Assembly: GCA_041640595.1 (NCBI GenBank)
Contig: JBEPZY010000003.1
Span: 276,773 to 340,772, forward strand
Origin: Gemmatales bacterium
GTDB lineage: Bacteria; Planctomycetota; Planctomycetia; Gemmatales; HRBIN36
DNA: 64,000 nt
Direction: 5' to 3'
Of the stretch, positions 10,536 to 54,516 are shown in pieces. The position numbers and the translations under genes are program-made. The notes under the pieces are model-generated. The model worked only from the letters and a program-made list of their open reading frames with translations, had not been told where the DNA came from and did not search any database. The stretch's first letter is position 1. The number at the start of each line of letters is the position of its first letter.

Positions 10536-10876
10536 CCACGGCGGGCTGACGCCCACCGCTCTTGGTCGTGCGTGCGTATGTGCAGCGTAAAAATCGTTTT
10601 TTCGCCGGCAGAGATGCGCGTTCCGCCACAAGAGCGGGGGGCGTTAGCCCCCCGTGGCGCCGATAAACGCGAATGCAACGGCAATCCGCACACACACCGT
10701 CGGCGGTCTGCCGACGAATAGCGGGCGTGTGTGCGGATGCGATTTTGCCGGCCCACGGCGGGCTGACGCCCGCCGCTCTTGTTCGGATGTGCGGATGTGC
10801 AGCGTAAAAATCGTTTTTTCGCCGGCAGAGATGCGCGTTCGACCGCAAGAGCGGGGGGCGTTAGCCCCCCGTGGTG
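10536..10876. repeat. REP-like palindrome cluster 1 (between convergent-side genes)
   Basis: Alternating-orientation copies of CCACGGCGGGCTGACGCCCGCCGCTCTTG and CAAGAGCGGGGGGCGTTAGCCCCCCGTGG with conserved linkers. Confidence 0.85.
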
Positions 10877-11044
10877 TTGCTCTACGCGATGGCAACCCTA
10901 AGGCGACCACAATGGCCTACTGATTTAGTAACGCGTTAGCCCCCCGTGGTGTTGCTCTACGCGATGGCAACGACGGGGTCTGCAAAGTTATCGTGGACCC
11001 CGACGGTCGTTAGCCCCCGTGGTGTCGCTCCACGCGATGGCAAC
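10860..11044 (+). CRISPR. CRISPR-like mini-array built from REP sequence: 3 repeats, 2 unique spacers
   Basis: Repeat GTTAGCCCCCCGTGGTGTTGCTCTACGCGATGGCAAC at 10860-10896 and 10935-10971 (identical) and 11009-11044 (one deletion, two substitutions); unrelated 38 and 37 bp spacers. No cas genes nearby. Confidence 0.55.
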
Positions 11045-11156
11045 GGCGGTCGGCACACGTACTCTCGGCGGTCTTCCGAGCGTTCGCGCTCGGGCCGGAT
11101 AGTACTTACGGGCGATCGTAGCAACCGCGAGGGGGTTTGCGAACCGGAGCAGAGCG

Positions 11157-21992: not shown

Positions 21993-22104
21993 GGTCGCAA
22001 TGCCGCCAGATGGGGCGGTACAATGACAGCGTTCGGGCCGGCTGGCTGTCTCTGGCACACCAAGAAGGTCGCGATGCCGCCAGATGGGTCGGTACAATGA
22101 CAGC
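21993..22104 (+). repeat. 38-bp direct repeat flanking a unique 36-bp insert
   Basis: GGTCGC(A/G)ATGCCGCCAGATGGG(G/T)CGGTACAATGACAGC at 21993-22030 and 22067-22104. Confidence 0.85.
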
Positions 22105-47091: not shown

Positions 47092-50000
47092 CTACATCTC
47101 TACTGGTGCAGTGAGTTTGCACTTCTTCAGGTCAACACGCCATGTCCGGGTTTCGAGAGCGTCATCAGGAATTGTGTCATACCGCGTGATACGGACTCGG
47201 CTGGGATCCCTCTCTGCCAGGTGCTCAACGTTCCAAAGTTCCCAGCGGTATTCTTGCTGACCTAAATACTCCTTATACTCCGGTTGCGTGAGTTCCACGA
47301 TTGTTGCGCGACCGCTATGCGCCTTGACTTCAACACGAAGTTCCTGGCCGTTCTTCGTTGCTCGAAGGTCAAAACCGGGATTCTCTAGGGGCATTTCCTC
47401 GACTTGATAGCCCATTTTCTCCAGTTGGCGCTTCACAATGATTCTGCCCGCCTTTTCCAACTCGGCCTTGTCTGCATCCGTCAGCGAACGGCCTCCCGAC
47501 CACGTTCCCACCGCTCCAGTACCGCCACCACCGATGTCGGCGCTTTCGCCGTGTGGGCTGACAAAATCATAGTTAGTCTTGGTTGGATCTTTCAGACGCA
47601 GTGGTTGCTCATCTCTCTCCTGTGGTTCCGCTTCTGAACGGCTCTCCACCGAAGTGTCGCCCGCTTGCCTTATGGAGGCTTGTTCCCGGTAATGCCCCTG
47701 GGTGTCGTCACCCACAGGCGTTTGTGACGTCCCGCTCTCTTGCTGGCCCTCTATCTGCGTCTGGGGACTCTCATCTTGTTCCTCCTGATCGGACTGTCGT
47801 GAGTACTCACGGAGGCACTTGTCTATTTCGGCATCCGCCATACCTTCACTCAGAAGCTTCTCTTTTCGCTGACGGTCATCAGCACAGCGAAGAAGATTCT
47901 CGTAGAAATCCGCCTCTTTCCGTACATCAAGTGCTTTCGTCAGCGCCCGCGCCAACTCAGCCTCGTTCTGGCGGTCTTTATGCAGGTAGATTGTGTCGCC
48001 CTCAACGTGCCAGCGTCGTTCGACCTCGTGATGCACGCCAGCCAAAGACAGCCTCGCTTTCAGGGTGGGCACGACCAGCACCTTCAAACGCTTCAGGCGA
48101 GCTGATAACCGTTCGGCGCTCTCCTGCTTGATCTCCGAGGACCTCCAGGCATACACATAAGGCAAAGACCTCGTGAACTTATCTTTCAGGTCGCCTGACA
48201 ACTGCGACTGCGGTTCCCCTGGTATGACATCCACGTTGACAGACTGCAATAGAGACAGAACACCGAAGTATTTCACGGCATCAGAGTGCAGTCGCGCAGG
48301 GATATGAAAGAGCCAGACGTCCTCAGCAAATGCTGTCGCAAGGCCGTTATCATCGTTCAGGTATCTTGGTTCGTTAGATACGTATTTCCAGTCGTTGCCC
48401 TTTCGGCAAAGGAGGGGGCAAGATTTGAAATCCTCATCTTTGATGTCCTCCTTTTCTGCTACAGTCTCCAGGCACGCCTCATACCATTTCATGACTTTGT
48501 ACCGAAGCTCTTCGTCAGACGCAAGGCGTTCGGCAGGGGCCTTACCGGGGATGCGCGTGGACAGGAGTTGCTTCCATTCTTCTACAGTCAGTTGTTCCAT
48601 TCGCGTGCGAAGGCCGACGGCACTGACAAGCCAGTCGCGGACAACCTCCTTGTCGTCTCCGAAAGCCTCAAGGTTAACGACGGGCAGAAGATCCCCTATG
48701 GCGCGTTCGGTTCGCCCATCGGGCAGCCAGCAATCAATAAGGGCTGCCGATGCTGACCCGCTTCTCGTCCTCGGTCGAACCATGTATAAGATTTGGAACC
48801 ACCAGAATGCACGAACAGACTGTTCCCGGTGGTAGTAGTAGAACCATGTCACTTTCGCTTGGGATCGCACCTTGTAGTAATCATCCCAGTGCTTTGCAAG
48901 CAACGTGAGTAAGGCGCAGACTTGAGTGTCGTTGAGCTTTTCAATAGTGACGGCTTCAAGACGACCAACGGCGTCCACGGTCGGGGTGCGCCAGCCTGTG
49001 TCTGGGAAAGTCTTTCGCCATCCACCGCACTCGACGGGCAATTGGTTCGCAGGAATTCCGTTTCCGTTGGACCCACAATTTTTTACGACACGCGGATAAG
49101 CGGCGCACCCGAGCCATTCGAGAACTGGGAGCTCTCTTTCCGCATCGCCGCTTATGCACTGCACCCAAGCAATGCCATCTTGGCCTTCATATAGCGCCTC
49201 AACTAGGTCGTTGTTCCATTCGATCCCGAAATAAGCCTTCTCAGCCTCGGCCCAAGTTCCACCTCTGACGGGCACGGGACACCGCCTCAGCTCTGCGGAA
49301 GGGAGCGTCGTCTCGTGCCAATCTTGCTGCAGGATGAAACGCAGGAATTGCCCCGGGTCGCCCTGTTTGTCCTTCCAGTACTGGTCAATCGCTTTGCCAA
49401 CGGCGCGCTGGACAACATCTGCGCCCGGTTCTTTGATCTCCAACTCCTCGCTCACTCTCTTGACCGTGGACTTTTCCTTGGCCTCCTTTTGGATGCGATC
49501 GCGGAACCAGTCGTCCACGAAGGTCAGCGGCAACCAATCGGGCAGGTTCCCCACCCCAGCATTCGGTTTCCAGGTCACGATACGCCCTGCAAGGTCTGAA
49601 ACCTTCAACAAACTGCCATCAATAGGCACTATGGGCAGCGCTTTCACGCTCTCGATTCGCTTCCGGTGTTCCTCGCTGTAAGGCGGCTTGCTGGCTACCC
49701 AATCCGCAAGCCATTCCCAGCAAGCCCACACCAAACCTGGGTTGGTGGCGAGTGAAACCGCGTTTTGAGCGATGACCTCCATCAGGTCTCGATCGTGGAT
49801 CTCCTTACAATCCAACGCCCTGAGTGCGTTCCGTGCTTCTTGGTCCGTGTCGAACGAACAATGCAACAATTGCCCTCCAAAGCTCGTAGCTTCGAGCAAG
49901 GTGCGCGCCAGGTCATGGCGGACGGTGACCGAAATTAATCTCGCCTCGCCAAGAGTCAGGCGCTGCTGACCTTCGATGTCTGCGAGTCGCAGGTCTGTCT

Positions 50001-51180
50001 TTGCCTTTTCAGCTATGCGTTGCCAGAGGGCATTGGCGACGGGATGAGACTCTCTGTCCTGGAAAGGTACAAGCAGGGCGGCATGACTGCTCGGCGCTTT
50101 TGTGTCGTAAGAGTCATTCACAAACTTGCAGACATGGTCGGCGAGTCTGTCGGCAACCCACGCGTTGAAGCGATTGCTTTCTATCGGTATGACGGCAGTA
50201 CGGTCGCTTTTAACAAGGAACTCGGCGTGAAGGAGCAGACGCACAGGACCTATTTGCTCTGTCGGATAGAAAACGTGAACGGGAAGGTAATCCTCCGTAG
50301 GTTTGACACAATCGTTTTCAAGCGGAGCAGCAATAATGAAACTGACCCCATCCTCAGAGACGGCTCGCCGCTCATTTGGCCCCAAAAGCTTCAGCAGGTC
50401 CTCGGGAGGGTGCTCTGTATGTTTTGCGACACGCCACCCGACTGGGGTCTGTCCCCGGCTGTCGCGCAGCAACCAAGTACCTTGCTCGCGGTTCCGGATA
50501 ACCTCTACCTCTAGTCCTGGAGCAGTGATTTTCCGAAGATGGCGGAAGGCAAAGAGCGCGTGAGGTGGCCAGTTCTTCAGCAGTTGTTCCACCTCCGTTA
50601 TCTTTTCCGGAGAAAGGCCGGGCAGCTTGACAACCGTTTTGAAGCCCTTCGCCTTGAAATCGTCAAGATGAGGGTCTTGTGCTCGGGCATCACTCCACGC
50701 GATGAAAAACGGAATCCATTGGTAGGGCACGTGTTCCCCGCCCAGGTCGTTGTCTTGCAGCCACCGCACGCTTTTGTCAGGACTGAACTCTATGCCCTCG
50801 CCGTCCACGGTAAGCACCTGGGGATTCCGGGAGACCTCGTACACCGATTTGAATCCTACGCCTTTGCGGCCGATCGCGCCCCCAGTCTTGTCTGAGAAAT
50901 CAGTGCCGCAAATAGCGCCCACGGATTCGGGTTTGAAGCCTTGACCGTTGTCGGCCACATAGACAGCGTCGTTCTTGACCGAAACAAGAACCTCCGTGGC
51001 CTGTGCATCATCGCTATTTTGCAACAGCTCGAAGAGCCATCGCCCCGTGTGGTCGCCCGTGGCGCGCTCTGCGGCCCGCGCGTCGCGAACTATCCGCTCT
51101 GGGTCGGCTTTGTAGACTTTTAAGGTTTTCTTCTTGTATTGTTCAATAGCTGCTTCTAAATGGCCTTTTTTCTTGTGCAT
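47092..51180 (-). CDS. Sacsin-like GHKL ATPase with C-terminal DUF3883 (NO VEIN-type) nuclease-like domain
   Basis: ELLQNSDDA, DNG.GF, IGRKGVGFKSV; C-terminal 'E..G......L...GY......NPGFDL......VEVKA...ELT..EY'; lower GC than flanks. Confidence 0.85.
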   Translation of the reverse strand: MHKKKGHLEAAIEQYKKKTLKVYKADPERIVRDARAAERATGDHTGRWLFELLQNSDDAQATEVLVSVKNDAVYVADNGQGFKPESVGAICGTDFSDKTGGAIGRKGVGFKSVYEVSRNPQVLTVDGEGIEFSPDKSVRWLQDNDLGGEHVPYQWIPFFIAWSDARAQDPHLDDFKAKGFKTVVKLPGLSPEKITEVEQLLKNWPPHALFAFRHLRKITAPGLEVEVIRNREQGTWLLRDSRGQTPVGWRVAKHTEHPPEDLLKLLGPNERRAVSEDGVSFIIAAPLENDCVKPTEDYLPVHVFYPTEQIGPVRLLLHAEFLVKSDRTAVIPIESNRFNAWVADRLADHVCKFVNDSYDTKAPSSHAALLVPFQDRESHPVANALWQRIAEKAKTDLRLADIEGQQRLTLGEARLISVTVRHDLARTLLEATSFGGQLLHCSFDTDQEARNALRALDCKEIHDRDLMEVIAQNAVSLATNPGLVWACWEWLADWVASKPPYSEEHRKRIESVKALPIVPIDGSLLKVSDLAGRIVTWKPNAGVGNLPDWLPLTFVDDWFRDRIQKEAKEKSTVKRVSEELEIKEPGADVVQRAVGKAIDQYWKDKQGDPGQFLRFILQQDWHETTLPSAELRRCPVPVRGGTWAEAEKAYFGIEWNNDLVEALYEGQDGIAWVQCISGDAERELPVLEWLGCAAYPRVVKNCGSNGNGIPANQLPVECGGWRKTFPDTGWRTPTVDAVGRLEAVTIEKLNDTQVCALLTLLAKHWDDYYKVRSQAKVTWFYYYHREQSVRAFWWFQILYMVRPRTRSGSASAALIDCWLPDGRTERAIGDLLPVVNLEAFGDDKEVVRDWLVSAVGLRTRMEQLTVEEWKQLLSTRIPGKAPAERLASDEELRYKVMKWYEACLETVAEKEDIKDEDFKSCPLLCRKGNDWKYVSNEPRYLNDDNGLATAFAEDVWLFHIPARLHSDAVKYFGVLSLLQSVNVDVIPGEPQSQLSGDLKDKFTRSLPYVYAWRSSEIKQESAERLSARLKRLKVLVVPTLKARLSLAGVHHEVERRWHVEGDTIYLHKDRQNEAELARALTKALDVRKEADFYENLLRCADDRQRKEKLLSEGMADAEIDKCLREYSRQSDQEEQDESPQTQIEGQQESGTSQTPVGDDTQGHYREQASIRQAGDTSVESRSEAEPQERDEQPLRLKDPTKTNYDFVSPHGESADIGGGGTGAVGTWSGGRSLTDADKAELEKAGRIIVKRQLEKMGYQVEEMPLENPGFDLRATKNGQELRVEVKAHSGRATIVELTQPEYKEYLGQQEYRWELWNVEHLAERDPSRVRITRYDTIPDDALETRTWRVDLKKCKLTAPVEM

Positions 51181-51662
51181 AAGTGCTTATTGTATGGTCT
51201 CCACCTAACACCTGTGCCCATTTCCATTGGCATAATACGCTTCGGCGGATGAAGTGCTAAGTTCTTCGGTTTCGCCGTGCCTCCTATGTCTTCAAGCATG
51301 GTCGCCATGTTTGGTGGTTTCCATCTAACCTGCGTAGTGCACAACGCATCGCCCGGACTTTACCTTTAGCGTAGGGTAACCTCCAGGTTCACTCGTTAGC
51401 CAGAAACCACTTTGCCACCTCAACGGATCGTCTGAGTCACATTCGAGAATTGGCTGTGCGAGTCTATCACTGGTTAGCTAACAGGCGTTTCGCCACCTCG
51501 ACTCACCCTCGACCTCCCCCGCCCCGGAAGTTTCTGCCTTTTTCGAGAACGTGCTCAGAAAACCTGCTACTCATCCTCGACTTCACTGTTCCCTCGCCGC
51601 TGCTTGGTTGCCAGTCGGCCGTCACGGTGCGGCAACGTTCACCCTTGCCGGTGCGTATCGAA

Positions 51663-51865
51663 CCCACGGCGGGCTAACGCCGCCTGCTCTTTGGTGGCGT
51701 TACTTGCCGAACAGAAATCGAATCGTTCCGCAAATGCGTCTTCCACACCCACGGCGGGCTGACACCCGCCGCTCTTGGTGCGTGTGCGACTCGGCATTGC
51801 AAGACGCGATTTCCCGGCGAACGAACGTCGTGCACCAGGAGCGGCTCGCGTAAGCCGACCGTGGC
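51663..51865. repeat. REP-like palindrome cluster
   Basis: Copies near 51664, 51749 and 51830. Confidence 0.8.
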
Positions 51866-52063
51866 GCGCGAGCGTTCTCCTTCGACGAAAACCTCGCCGA
51901 AAAACGCTCGCCATCGCCGATGCGTTTCCCCCACGGCGGGTGTCCGTGTGCACGGGCGCGTGGCGAATCAGTAGAATAAGCCCTGCGAAAAGCAGGAATA
52001 GCGACCGGGCCGAGTTCCGCTACTTGTGGCGAATCAGTAGAATAATCGCTGCCCCGCTGCTTG

Positions 52064-52160
52064 GTGCTAATCGAACCAACGTGGGATTGAAAACTTACTC
52101 AGGAAGTGAAGGCACGTGTTCGGGCGATGCGTGCTAATTGAACCAACGTGGGATTGAAAA
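52064..52160 (+). CRISPR. Orphan CRISPR mini-array: two 30-bp repeats, one 37-bp spacer
   Basis: GTGCTAAT(C/T)GAACCAACGTGGGATTGAAAA at 52064-52093 and 52131-52160; the ATTGAAA(N) 3' end is typical of CRISPR repeats. Confidence 0.8.
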
Positions 52161-52329
52161 GTAGAATCAGTAGAATAAGCGCTGCCCCGCTGCCCGGCTG
52201 AAGACAAACGGGCAAGCTTTTCCTGCCGCTATCACGGAACAAAGCGTTCGAACCGAGAGGAAAAGCCAGATCGGCCGAGAGTTGCAGCAAGTGACCGCTG
52301 GGACTTTTGCTTGAACAAAGGGGGAAACC

Positions 52330-53745
52330 ATGCGAGTGTTTGCTGCAGCAATTGCGACGTGCCTGATGTTTGGGCTAACAGCCCCGTTCGCCGCCGAGCC
52401 CGAGGACTGGTACTACCACGACGGGCCGTTGGCCGGCTCGCTCAAGAGTGACAAGCCGTTGCCACTCTACGACAAAGACCCAAACCATCTTTGGAACCGA
52501 CTGTTCGCTGTTCTTTACATTCGGCCCGGCGAGAATCCCCCGCCTGGCCAAGCCCGGCGCATTGAAGGAGGCGACGCCTATCTCGATCCGCTGCTGTGGC
52601 CCGAGACGCCACGCTTCACCGCCGACCGCGCTGTCCTGGAGAAGACGATTCGGCTGCTCGACGAGTTCCTGGAACAGAAAGGAGCCGACCTCATCACTGA
52701 CCCGCTCAAGCGGGCGATCTTCCAGCATGACCTGTGGGTCGTGTACGACCGAGTAGCGCGGCAGCGGCCGCGAACGGGCCTGGCGACACTGCACGGCGAG
52801 ATGCTCCGGAAAATGGCCCAAGTAATCCGGGCAGTCGCCCTCTCCAAAGAGGAGATCGCCGCCCTCCCCGACAATTACGCGCTGGCCCTGAAGTCGGGGC
52901 ATTTCGCCGCCGAACATGGATTCGATCCCAGGATCGACTATCTACCCGCTGATTTGCCAACGGGGCCGGGCAATTCCACCACCGGCGACTGGGTGGAGAT
53001 CACCTATCCGGCCCACGTGCCACCGTATCACACCCACGACTTCGGCGGCCGCTCCTACTTCCGCATCTTCTGCCGCTTCCCCGCGGGTCGGCAGGCAGTG
53101 CTCGACTACCTGAAGTATGTGGCCGAAGAAGGCGTTGACCAGAACCATCCCGATGCAGCCAGGAGGGCGGTGCTCAAGAGCAAAGGTCTGCGGCAAATCC
53201 CCGCCGGCACCCAACTCGCCCTGCTCCGCCAGATGGTGGTGCTCGACAAGAACCTGGAACCGGTGCCGACATCCATCGTGCAAGAGCTTCGCATGCGCAT
53301 CTTCAAGAACGTCGAGGGGAAGGAAGATCCCGCTACCACTTCCGGGGAGGGCGTCAACATCTACTCTTACGAATTGAAGCGAGCCCTGGCGTTCGACGGC
53401 CTGCGCAAAGGCGGCCTGGAACGACAGCCGAACAACCTCAAAGTATATCGGCCGCTCTTCCACTTCAACGAGGACTGGGGACGGGCCAAGGGGCGCGAGG
53501 GTCTGGCATTTCTGCCCGTGGCGACCCACTGCATCGCCTGCCACGGTCACAAACCGGGCGGCAATGTCGGTGTTTACAGCATCCATTCCATTCACGCCGC
53601 CTTCAGCCTCGCCGGGGCCACTCGCAATGGCCCGCCAGGTATCGCCACGCCGATGACGAAGGAGGCGCCAACCCAGGCCCAGCGTGCAGAAAAAATAATT
53701 CTCTCGCGTCCGGAATATCGGCAGCTGGTGGAGTGGAGTCGCTAG
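52330..53745 (+). CDS. Secreted hypothetical protein with a single CxxCH (possible c-type cytochrome)
   Basis: Signal peptide; CIACH near the C-terminus. Confidence 0.75.
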   Translation: MRVFAAAIATCLMFGLTAPFAAEPEDWYYHDGPLAGSLKSDKPLPLYDKDPNHLWNRLFAVLYIRPGENPPPGQARRIEGGDAYLDPLLWPETPRFTADRAVLEKTIRLLDEFLEQKGADLITDPLKRAIFQHDLWVVYDRVARQRPRTGLATLHGEMLRKMAQVIRAVALSKEEIAALPDNYALALKSGHFAAEHGFDPRIDYLPADLPTGPGNSTTGDWVEITYPAHVPPYHTHDFGGRSYFRIFCRFPAGRQAVLDYLKYVAEEGVDQNHPDAARRAVLKSKGLRQIPAGTQLALLRQMVVLDKNLEPVPTSIVQELRMRIFKNVEGKEDPATTSGEGVNIYSYELKRALAFDGLRKGGLERQPNNLKVYRPLFHFNEDWGRAKGREGLAFLPVATHCIACHGHKPGGNVGVYSIHSIHAAFSLAGATRNGPPGIATPMTKEAPTQAQRAEKIILSRPEYRQLVEWSR

Positions 53746-54404: not shown

Positions 54405-54516
54405 GTGCTGGTGGTTCGGAGATTGGCAGCTTAGCTTGCGGCACCACAAGACAGAAGATACGCAACTATTTTCTCAAGGTGCTGGTGGTTCGAAGATTGT
54501 CAGCTTAGCTTGCGGC
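54405..54516 (+). repeat. 38-bp direct repeat (includes the lon stop codon) flanking a unique 36-bp insert
   Basis: 54405-54442 vs 54479-54516, 2 mismatches. Confidence 0.85.

Follow-up and report, generated by a model that had tools for sequence, protein, structure and literature searches.

The 64,000-nt window analyzed here corresponds to positions 276773–340772 of contig C3 in assembly G000, from a hot-spring bacterium, and its own coordinates are used below unless a contig is named. An intergenic region of this window contains a CRISPR mini-array, composed of two repeats and a single spacer and embedded in an exact 30-bp duplication of ordinary DNA. This arrangement is probably a nested scar of spacer integration, left by the resident type I-B Cas1-Cas2(-Cas4) in two, possibly three, rounds.

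All the components of the locus are described on the plus strand. The outer target duplication consists of copy A (52031–52060, GAATCAGTAGAATAATCGCTGCCCCGCTGC) and copy B (52164–52193, GAATCAGTAGAATAAGCGCTGCCCCGCTGC), which are identical at 29 of 30 positions and whose motif was found only at this locus in the whole assembly. Since the bases immediately outside the two copies are different at both edges (C/A before and T/C after), the duplication is of exactly 30 bp. It encloses the triplet TTG (52061–52063), inner repeat 1 (52064–52093, 30 nt, GTGCTAATCGAACCAACGTGGGATTGAAAA), a 37-nt spacer (52094–52130), inner repeat 2 (52131–52160, also of 30 nt and with the change C9T with respect to repeat 1) and the triplet GTA (52161–52163), confirming base for base the arrangement given in the initial annotation of this DNA. 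The inner duplication is likewise of exactly 30 bp. The outer insert thus has 103 bp, which is 36 bp plus one repeat-spacer unit of 67 bp; removal of this unit would leave a 36-bp fragment containing one repeat with 3 nt at each side, TTG to the left and GTA to the right. The earlier contention that this remainder is spacer-sized holds well, as 36 nt is the modal length of the resident spacers. The pattern of the inner repeat has two matches in the window against 0.00 expected from 100 shuffles, and the first 15 bases of the flank have three matches against 0.02 expected. Predicted folding of the single inner repeats is weak (−1.1 to −3.7 kcal/mol), and an Rfam scan of positions 51500–52400 gave no relevant match.

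The third match of the flank, which does not appear in the initial annotation, corresponds to a partial copy whose register is offset by 5 nt from that of the 30-bp flank. This possible older target copy, designated copy 0 (51960–51986, 27 nt), is identical at 25 of 27 positions to 52026–52052, with a start-to-start distance of 66, and the 39 nt that separate it from its partner (51987–52025; 36 nt if the target is of 30 nt) are a candidate older ectopic insert. Copy 0 may therefore derive from an earlier ectopic insertion at nearly the same site, preceding the outer duplication, and is less convincing than the other components, its match extending over 27 nt and not over the full 30.

A CRISPR system with these same dimensions resides in the genome (4.45 Mb in 42 contigs, 57.6 % G+C). 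Its main array is split over two contig ends, C8:4–21080 (317 repeats) and C10:65237–66999 (27 repeats), adding up to at least 344 copies of the 30-nt repeat GTACTAATCGAACCACGGTGGGATTGAAAC. The 341 readable spacers are of 35–40 nt with a mode of 36, there being 36, 165, 108 and 26 spacers of 35, 36, 37 and 38 nt, respectively; an apparent spacer of 103 nt is a masked run of N and was discarded as a genuine spacer length. Genes for Cas1 (type I-B model TIGR03641, E = 1.4e-127), Cas2, Cas4, Cas3, Cas5 and Cas7 are located beside the leader of this array, and the same type I-B/III-B locus includes a 466-amino acid protein in the Cas8 position and a Cmr1–6 type III-B set. The genome therefore has the cas1/cas2 locus with 30-bp repeats and 36–37-nt spacers that the initial annotation had anticipated. 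Its adaptation module, with Cas1, Cas2 and Cas4 beside the array, uses the same 30-bp ruler as the nested locus and was recently active, since spacers from the leader side match contig C15 of the same assembly. A second adaptation module, with Cas2 and Cas1 on contig C1, adjoins a second array, in which a 37-nt repeat appears 247 times (period 72–76). There is also a third, small array with the related 30-nt repeat GTTTCAATACCACACTGGTTCAATTAAAAG, which appears in six copies at C20:1210–1581, on a 4.7-kb contig, and in one copy on C13.

A search with the spacer of the mini-array, as had been advised, was rewarding: it is identical at 32 of 37 positions to C15:696–732, on the plus strand and with CCG directly upstream, and its other matches in the genome span only 11–14 nt (E of 0.34 or worse). 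The main array has 33 spacers matching C15, 26 of them with CCN upstream of the match (the frequency of CC is 5.2 %) and 29 on the plus strand, as occurs with the inner spacer. These matches include 22 of the first 26 spacers of the leader side, 12 of which are 100 % identical over the aligned stretch; primed adaptation directed at a live mobile element gives such a pattern. The grounds for considering C15 (locus L040; 9585 bp) a putative mobile element are solely these 33 targeting spacers and its low G+C content, of 50 % against 57.6 % for the genome. Nearly all its open reading frames (ORFs) lack an assigned function, with Pfam identifying a matrixin-like peptidase and, below threshold, a protein-primed DNA polymerase B (E = 7.8e-4), and none of the nine ORFs had a match in PHROGs. 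The 20-nt core of the inner spacer had no match in the viral_contigs collection. Because the identity of the inner spacer to C15 is 86 %, similar to that of the oldest matching near-trailer spacer (88 %, C10 spacer 9), its acquisition should be old, or from a relative of C15.

The inner repeat belongs to the family of the resident type I-B/III-B repeat, with which it shares 26 of 30 positions (the differences are at positions 3, 16, 17 and 30). A degenerate pattern of this family identified 18 loci among assemblies of thermophiles belonging to several phyla, in a genome_contigs collection with one genome for each of 185,579 species. The commonest repeat among these loci, GTGCTAATCGAACCAAGGTGGGATTGAAAC, is two changes away from the inner repeat (28 of 30 positions identical) and also two changes away from the resident repeat. 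The substitutions G17C and C30A occur in both inner copies and in none of the 18 related loci, which indicates that one inner repeat descends from the other; this common descent fits a duplication of the repeat during integration, and not recombination with a donor array. No stray copies of either repeat family were found elsewhere in the genome. In related arrays, the leader has TGG, GGG or TTG as its last three bases, adjoining the first repeat; in the resident array these bases are TGG. The TTG at the left of the captured repeat is thus a weak hint of a leader end, in which case the fragment would be a leader-repeat-spacer junction; we estimate the chance of such a triplet at around 0.07. 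Among the related loci, L019 (1497–1593 in repeat orientation), from a Blastocatellia assembly and situated mid-contig (325 kb), is a minimal canonical array: it belongs to the same family and has only two repeats, preceded by the complete conserved leader.

Scars with the same geometry are frequent in the genome. We surveyed direct-repeat pairs of at least 20 nt at distances of 40–130, leaving out the three big array stretches (640 pairs). There were 95 pairs at distances 65–68 (13, 40, 30 and 12, respectively), which are the periods of the 30-nt array, and 130 pairs at distances 72–76, the periods of the 37-nt array, over a background of 0–6 pairs for most of the remaining distances. Repeat length was correlated with distance: 43 pairs with a length of 28–32 nt were found at 65–68, or 10.75 per distance bin, as compared with 0.04–0.9 per bin at 40–64, 77–87 and 94–125, and 2.33 in bins 69–71, between the peaks; pairs with a length of 36–39 nt numbered 33 at 72–76 and only two at 65–68. 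Two other peaks fell outside these periods. That at 88–93 (149 pairs) was rejected as CRISPR, since 140 of 152 pairs come from one hairpin repeat family, and the spike of 55 pairs at exactly 126, with widely varying repeat lengths, is presumed to be a tandem repeat, perhaps in a gene.

The duplicated sequence was specific for each locus in both classes, with 80 families for 89 pairs in the 30-nt class and 86 families for 98 pairs in the 37-nt class. Merging of the pairs gave 80 scar loci for the 30/36 kind and 87 for the 37/37 kind, most of them consisting of one unit. Both counts are upper bounds because some of the pairs at 65–68 are plain tandem repeats (C2:461746 and C10:6062). Inserts were of 34–38 nt in well-bounded 30/36 scars and of 34–39 bp in the 37-bp class. 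Scars fell within long open frames in 27–37 % of the cases, against 81 % of random sites. Considering both strands symmetrically, 43 of 86 and 34 of 74 targets of the two classes had a 5′ G, against 29 % for the genome. Targets of the 30-nt class bore a slight likeness to the true repeat, with an average of 9.75 matches of 30 against 8.37 (p = 7e-4) and a C at position 30 in 61 % against 28 %. The outer flank of the nested locus has a G at position 1 and a C at position 30, and matches the true 30-nt repeat at 12 of 30 positions, a score that places it among the highest 8 % of random 30-mers. An ectopic insert was also found that nearly reproduces a spacer of the main array. The inserts with matches elsewhere that were inspected included five ectopic ones and one of the 37/37 class, and two of them proved to be paralogous copies of one scar; in another two, CCC adjoined the match in the reverse orientation only, which is not decisive. 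A sixth inspected insert (C9:139927), whose match within the cas1 gene was limited to 23 of 24 bases, was set aside as probably due to chance. The only explanation that we see for two classes of scars, each copying the ruler of one array, is off-target integration by two resident integrases. The scars of both classes have the appearance of fixed off-target integrations. Three others are found in the window, at 10858–11045, 21993–22104 and 54405–54516, all of the 37-nt class and one of them with three copies.

The nested locus is not confined to a single assembly. Contig L031, from an independent metagenome assembly and the only contig retrieved in a metagenome scan, has the same filled structure and the same spacer, with two extra changes, in repeat 2 and in flank copy B; the spacer and repeat 1 are unchanged between both strains. 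We also examined assembled contigs from four sequencing runs, belonging to four studies (three DNA libraries and one RNA library), which bridge the joints from flank A to repeat 1 and from repeat 1 to flank B; none of the joints in these contigs omits the element or a unit of it. The presence of the filled structure in the second assembly and in contigs of the four runs indicates that the scar is fixed and shared instead of fresh, and so, with a spacer only 86 % identical to its present target, it is not a fresh snapshot of the self-seeding put forward in the initial annotation. To the left of position 52152, the two strains have three differences in 4,121 bases (99.9 % identity); to the right of the element they diverge by 5 % (52194–52329) and then by 1 % along the downstream ORF, and they are unrelated after 53846, where L031 continues with 2.2 kb lacking a match in G000. 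Since divergence jumps at repeat 2, there is a recombination boundary at the element or next to it. In one of the runs (X5), both flank copies have the same T>C change at the eighth base (52038 and 52171), which suggests gene conversion between the copies, or contigs placed at both sites.

From these results, the locus probably originated as follows. An integrase with a 30-bp ruler would have attacked an ordinary intergenic site, inserting a 36-bp fragment and duplicating the site. This fragment would comprise a whole repeat of the system's own family plus 3 nt at each side, possibly a leader-repeat-spacer junction, and would come from an ancestral or foreign array whose repeat was of a different variant, and not from the present resident array. 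The stray repeat, being a far better substrate than random DNA, would then have served as a normal target, and it is this second round that is most strongly supported: a 37-bp spacer from a relative of the C15 element, CCN-adjacent in its source, would have entered in canonical orientation, with duplication of the repeat. These two rounds might have been preceded by the ectopic insertion at copy 0. The two-step scheme of the initial annotation is thus backed by the geometry, the matching resident system, the approximately 80 similar scars, the genuine spacer and the copied repeats, and has to be amended in its choice of the cell's own present array as the source.

The locus is flanked by a gene for a sacsin-like ATPase (1362 amino acids, 47092–51180, minus strand) on one side and by a 471-amino acid ORF without assigned function (52330–53745) on the other, lon being the remaining neighbor. 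No phage, plasmid or cas genes were found among the neighbors of the mini-array, and the cas genes of this genome are situated on contigs C8, C1 and C5. Upstream of the mini-array, the conserved leader of related arrays is not present. Positions 51636–51890, directly upstream of the scar, contain the dispersed hairpin repeat family responsible for the peak at 88–93, with core CCACGGCGGGCTGACGCCCGCC. The core has around 918 copies genome-wide, with tandem clusters of period 88–93 at C2:308–314 kb, C3:148–151 kb and C9:87–88 kb; this family resembles repetitive extragenic palindromic (REP) elements and is not CRISPR-related. A promoter-like site, TTGAAC-18-TAGAAT (52138–52167, plus strand), recognized only by its match to the consensus, faces the downstream ORF; it was the only one found in 51500–52500, with 0.3 expected in shuffles. 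It is composed of repeat 2 and the junction of GTA with copy B, and the C9T change of repeat 2 supplies the TTG of its TTGAAC hexamer. Contigs from the RNA library cover the mini-array in pieces within 51994–52297, including 52063–52159 and 52131–52297, and provide neither ends nor strand; a gap in this coverage (51300–51623) was kept out of the evidence. The genome contains Cas6 genes, and the repeat family, inner repeats included, ends in an ATTGAAA(N) handle, the 8-nt handle preceding the spacer being AUUGAAAA.

Several results weigh against a nested origin. The source array of the captured repeat was not found: the junction TTG-repeat-GTA occurs at none of the 344 resident repeats, the exact inner repeat had no match in the 185,579-species genome collection, and the captured repeat differs at four of 30 positions from the resident repeat and at two of 30 from the nearest variant. 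An origin of the captured fragment in the cell's own array is therefore not supported for the array as it stands. The initial annotation advised a search for empty alleles in related strains; neither the empty allele (a single flank) nor the intermediate (flank-TTG-repeat-GTA-flank) was found, either in the second assembly or among contigs from the four runs, although absence from these contigs is no evidence of absence because contigs drop rare variants. None of 40 relatives had alignable DNA at the locus, their only matches being to the dispersed hairpin repeat, and the protein of the downstream ORF was found in only one of 14 other genomes of the family, with 38 % identity, which makes synteny unusable for an empty-site test. 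Since empty and intermediate alleles were not found, the order of events is something that we infer. Additionally, repeat sequence was not recovered from other ectopic inserts (two of 187 had a 9-nt match, as compared with 0.8 % of random 40-mers, and tests with 8-mers at the ends gave none), so the capture of a repeat would be a one-off in this genome. Copy 0, in turn, makes the history of the site more complex. Lastly, of the seven pairs at distances equivalent to two units (131–135), only that of the nested locus has a distinct inner direct repeat; among the other six, a middle copy or a tandem repeat accounts for three, masking affects two, and the last, at C2:36453, is a 33-nt direct repeat around 98 unstructured bases, showing that long gaps between 30-nt repeats can also arise otherwise.

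This last case is relevant to an alternative in which a 103-bp fragment, formed by repeat-spacer-repeat plus 3 nt at each side, was inserted whole by Cas1-Cas2 or another enzyme, with duplication of the 30-bp target. A single ectopic event would then suffice, and C2:36453 and the two candidates masked in their middle have the appropriate spacing. Nevertheless, we consider it quite unlikely, because the ruler of the integrase is tight, with resident spacers not exceeding 40 nt and well-bounded ectopic inserts not exceeding 38, both inner repeats contain the same two private substitutions, and the spacer shows the resident motif and strand, as expected for a local acquisition. A chance arrangement of unrelated repeats, for which only the general repeat richness of the genome could be invoked, is scarcely credible given the 0.00 and 0.02 matches expected in shuffles and that both duplications are repeat-length and both inserts spacer-length.

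The mini-array could also be all that remains of a canonical array that was once longer, or have arrived as a fragment through recombination, the 30-bp flank repeat having an unrelated origin. That the inner repeat is nearer to the variant widespread among thermophiles than to the resident repeat agrees with this view, as does the change in strain divergence at the locus, which hints at nearby recombination; yet an exact 30-bp duplication, set symmetrically at 3 nt from the outer side of each repeat, is not what erosion leaves behind, and there is neither a leader homologue upstream nor adjoining cas or phage genes, so that we regard this origin as unlikely. A selected regulatory role, either as a guide for gene control in the manner of CreA/CreR or as a promoter of the downstream gene, would be compatible with the proposed origin and might be argued from the unchanged spacer and repeat 1 in the two strains, from the contribution of C9T to the only promoter-like site in a kilobase and from the patchy coverage by RNA-library contigs. 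The strain conservation is, however, uninformative because several kb of the left flank are equally invariant, the RNA-library contigs cannot show ends, strand or processing, and the only significant match of the spacer in the genome is to the mobile-element contig C15. CreA/CreR elements presumably lie in or beside the cas operon and have a pseudo-spacer partly matching the promoter of a toxin or cas gene, neither of which applies to the mini-array, located on a different contig from any cas gene; a regulatory role is thus also improbable. Nested integration by the resident system accounts best for the exact geometry and for the two private substitutions shared by the inner repeats, and the mini-array is probably a fixed, near-neutral relic that may still yield one CRISPR RNA.

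These observations raise the possibility, which we put forward tentatively, of budding by CRISPR arrays, in which a repeat taken as a spacer, perhaps at the leader-repeat junction nicked by the integrase, would seed a new, cognate array elsewhere. If so, the budded array could take up antiviral spacers and be read by Cas6 and the effectors, and this would constitute a recombination-free route to multiple and orphan arrays, of which the nested locus would be the first natural record. The origin and multiplicity of arrays have so far been explained largely by duplication, recombination and transfer. The genome itself is a natural test bed, since it combines around 170 scars, attributed to two integrases whose rulers differ, with an evidently active array and a target element present in the same assembly.

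Isolated or orphan arrays and mini-arrays away from cas genes have reportedly been cataloged by Shmakov and coworkers in The CRISPR Journal in 2020. The mini-array is similar to them in being a two-repeat array far from cas genes, whose repeats belong to a system located at another place of the genome, and differs in that its flanks keep a target-site duplication pointing to its mode of arrival. Solitary repeat units and mini-arrays also occur in viruses and proviruses (Faure et al., 2019, as described in PMC8616872). The resemblance is in having, outside an array, a repeat close but not identical to that of the host, and the 36-bp fragment might have come from a unit of this kind borne by foreign DNA; the nested locus differs because no viral or plasmid genes flank it, its left flank is chromosomal and 99.9 % conserved, and its spacer targets a mobile element and not the host. 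For Pyrococcus furiosus, whose repeats are also of 30 nt, integration in vitro depends on repeat-wide motifs together with a constant spacing, and parts of these motifs recur at off-target sites, according to PMC6698737. The weak resemblance to the repeat and the G/C ends of the scars agree with that account, which deals with another organism and an in vitro reaction.

The closest known counterpart is off-target integration by Cas1-Cas2 in E. coli, said to have been reported by Nivala, Shipman and Church in Nature Microbiology in 2018 as the origin of "neo-CRISPR" loci. Non-canonical integration or neo-CRISPR work is cited in bioRxiv 10.1101/148544 and PMC6698737. In the neo-CRISPR loci, as in the nested locus, an insert of spacer length is reportedly enclosed by two copies of a repeat-length stretch of ordinary DNA, in a scar that can be re-targeted and grow. 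They were generated by an over-expressed type I-E system in E. coli, instead of by a type I-B module in a wild genome, and their new repeats are duplicated host sequence, foreign to the effectors and thus unusable by the rest of the system, a restriction that a repeat insert bypasses. As the misplaced insert was itself a cognate repeat, the next acquisition made a unit with the system's own repeats. In full-text searches, with most subscription journals outside their coverage, we found no description of a repeat captured as a spacer and seeding an array. Off-target integration and neo-CRISPR loci are therefore known phenomena, and what is new in the locus described here is the nesting, with a cognate repeat as the insert.

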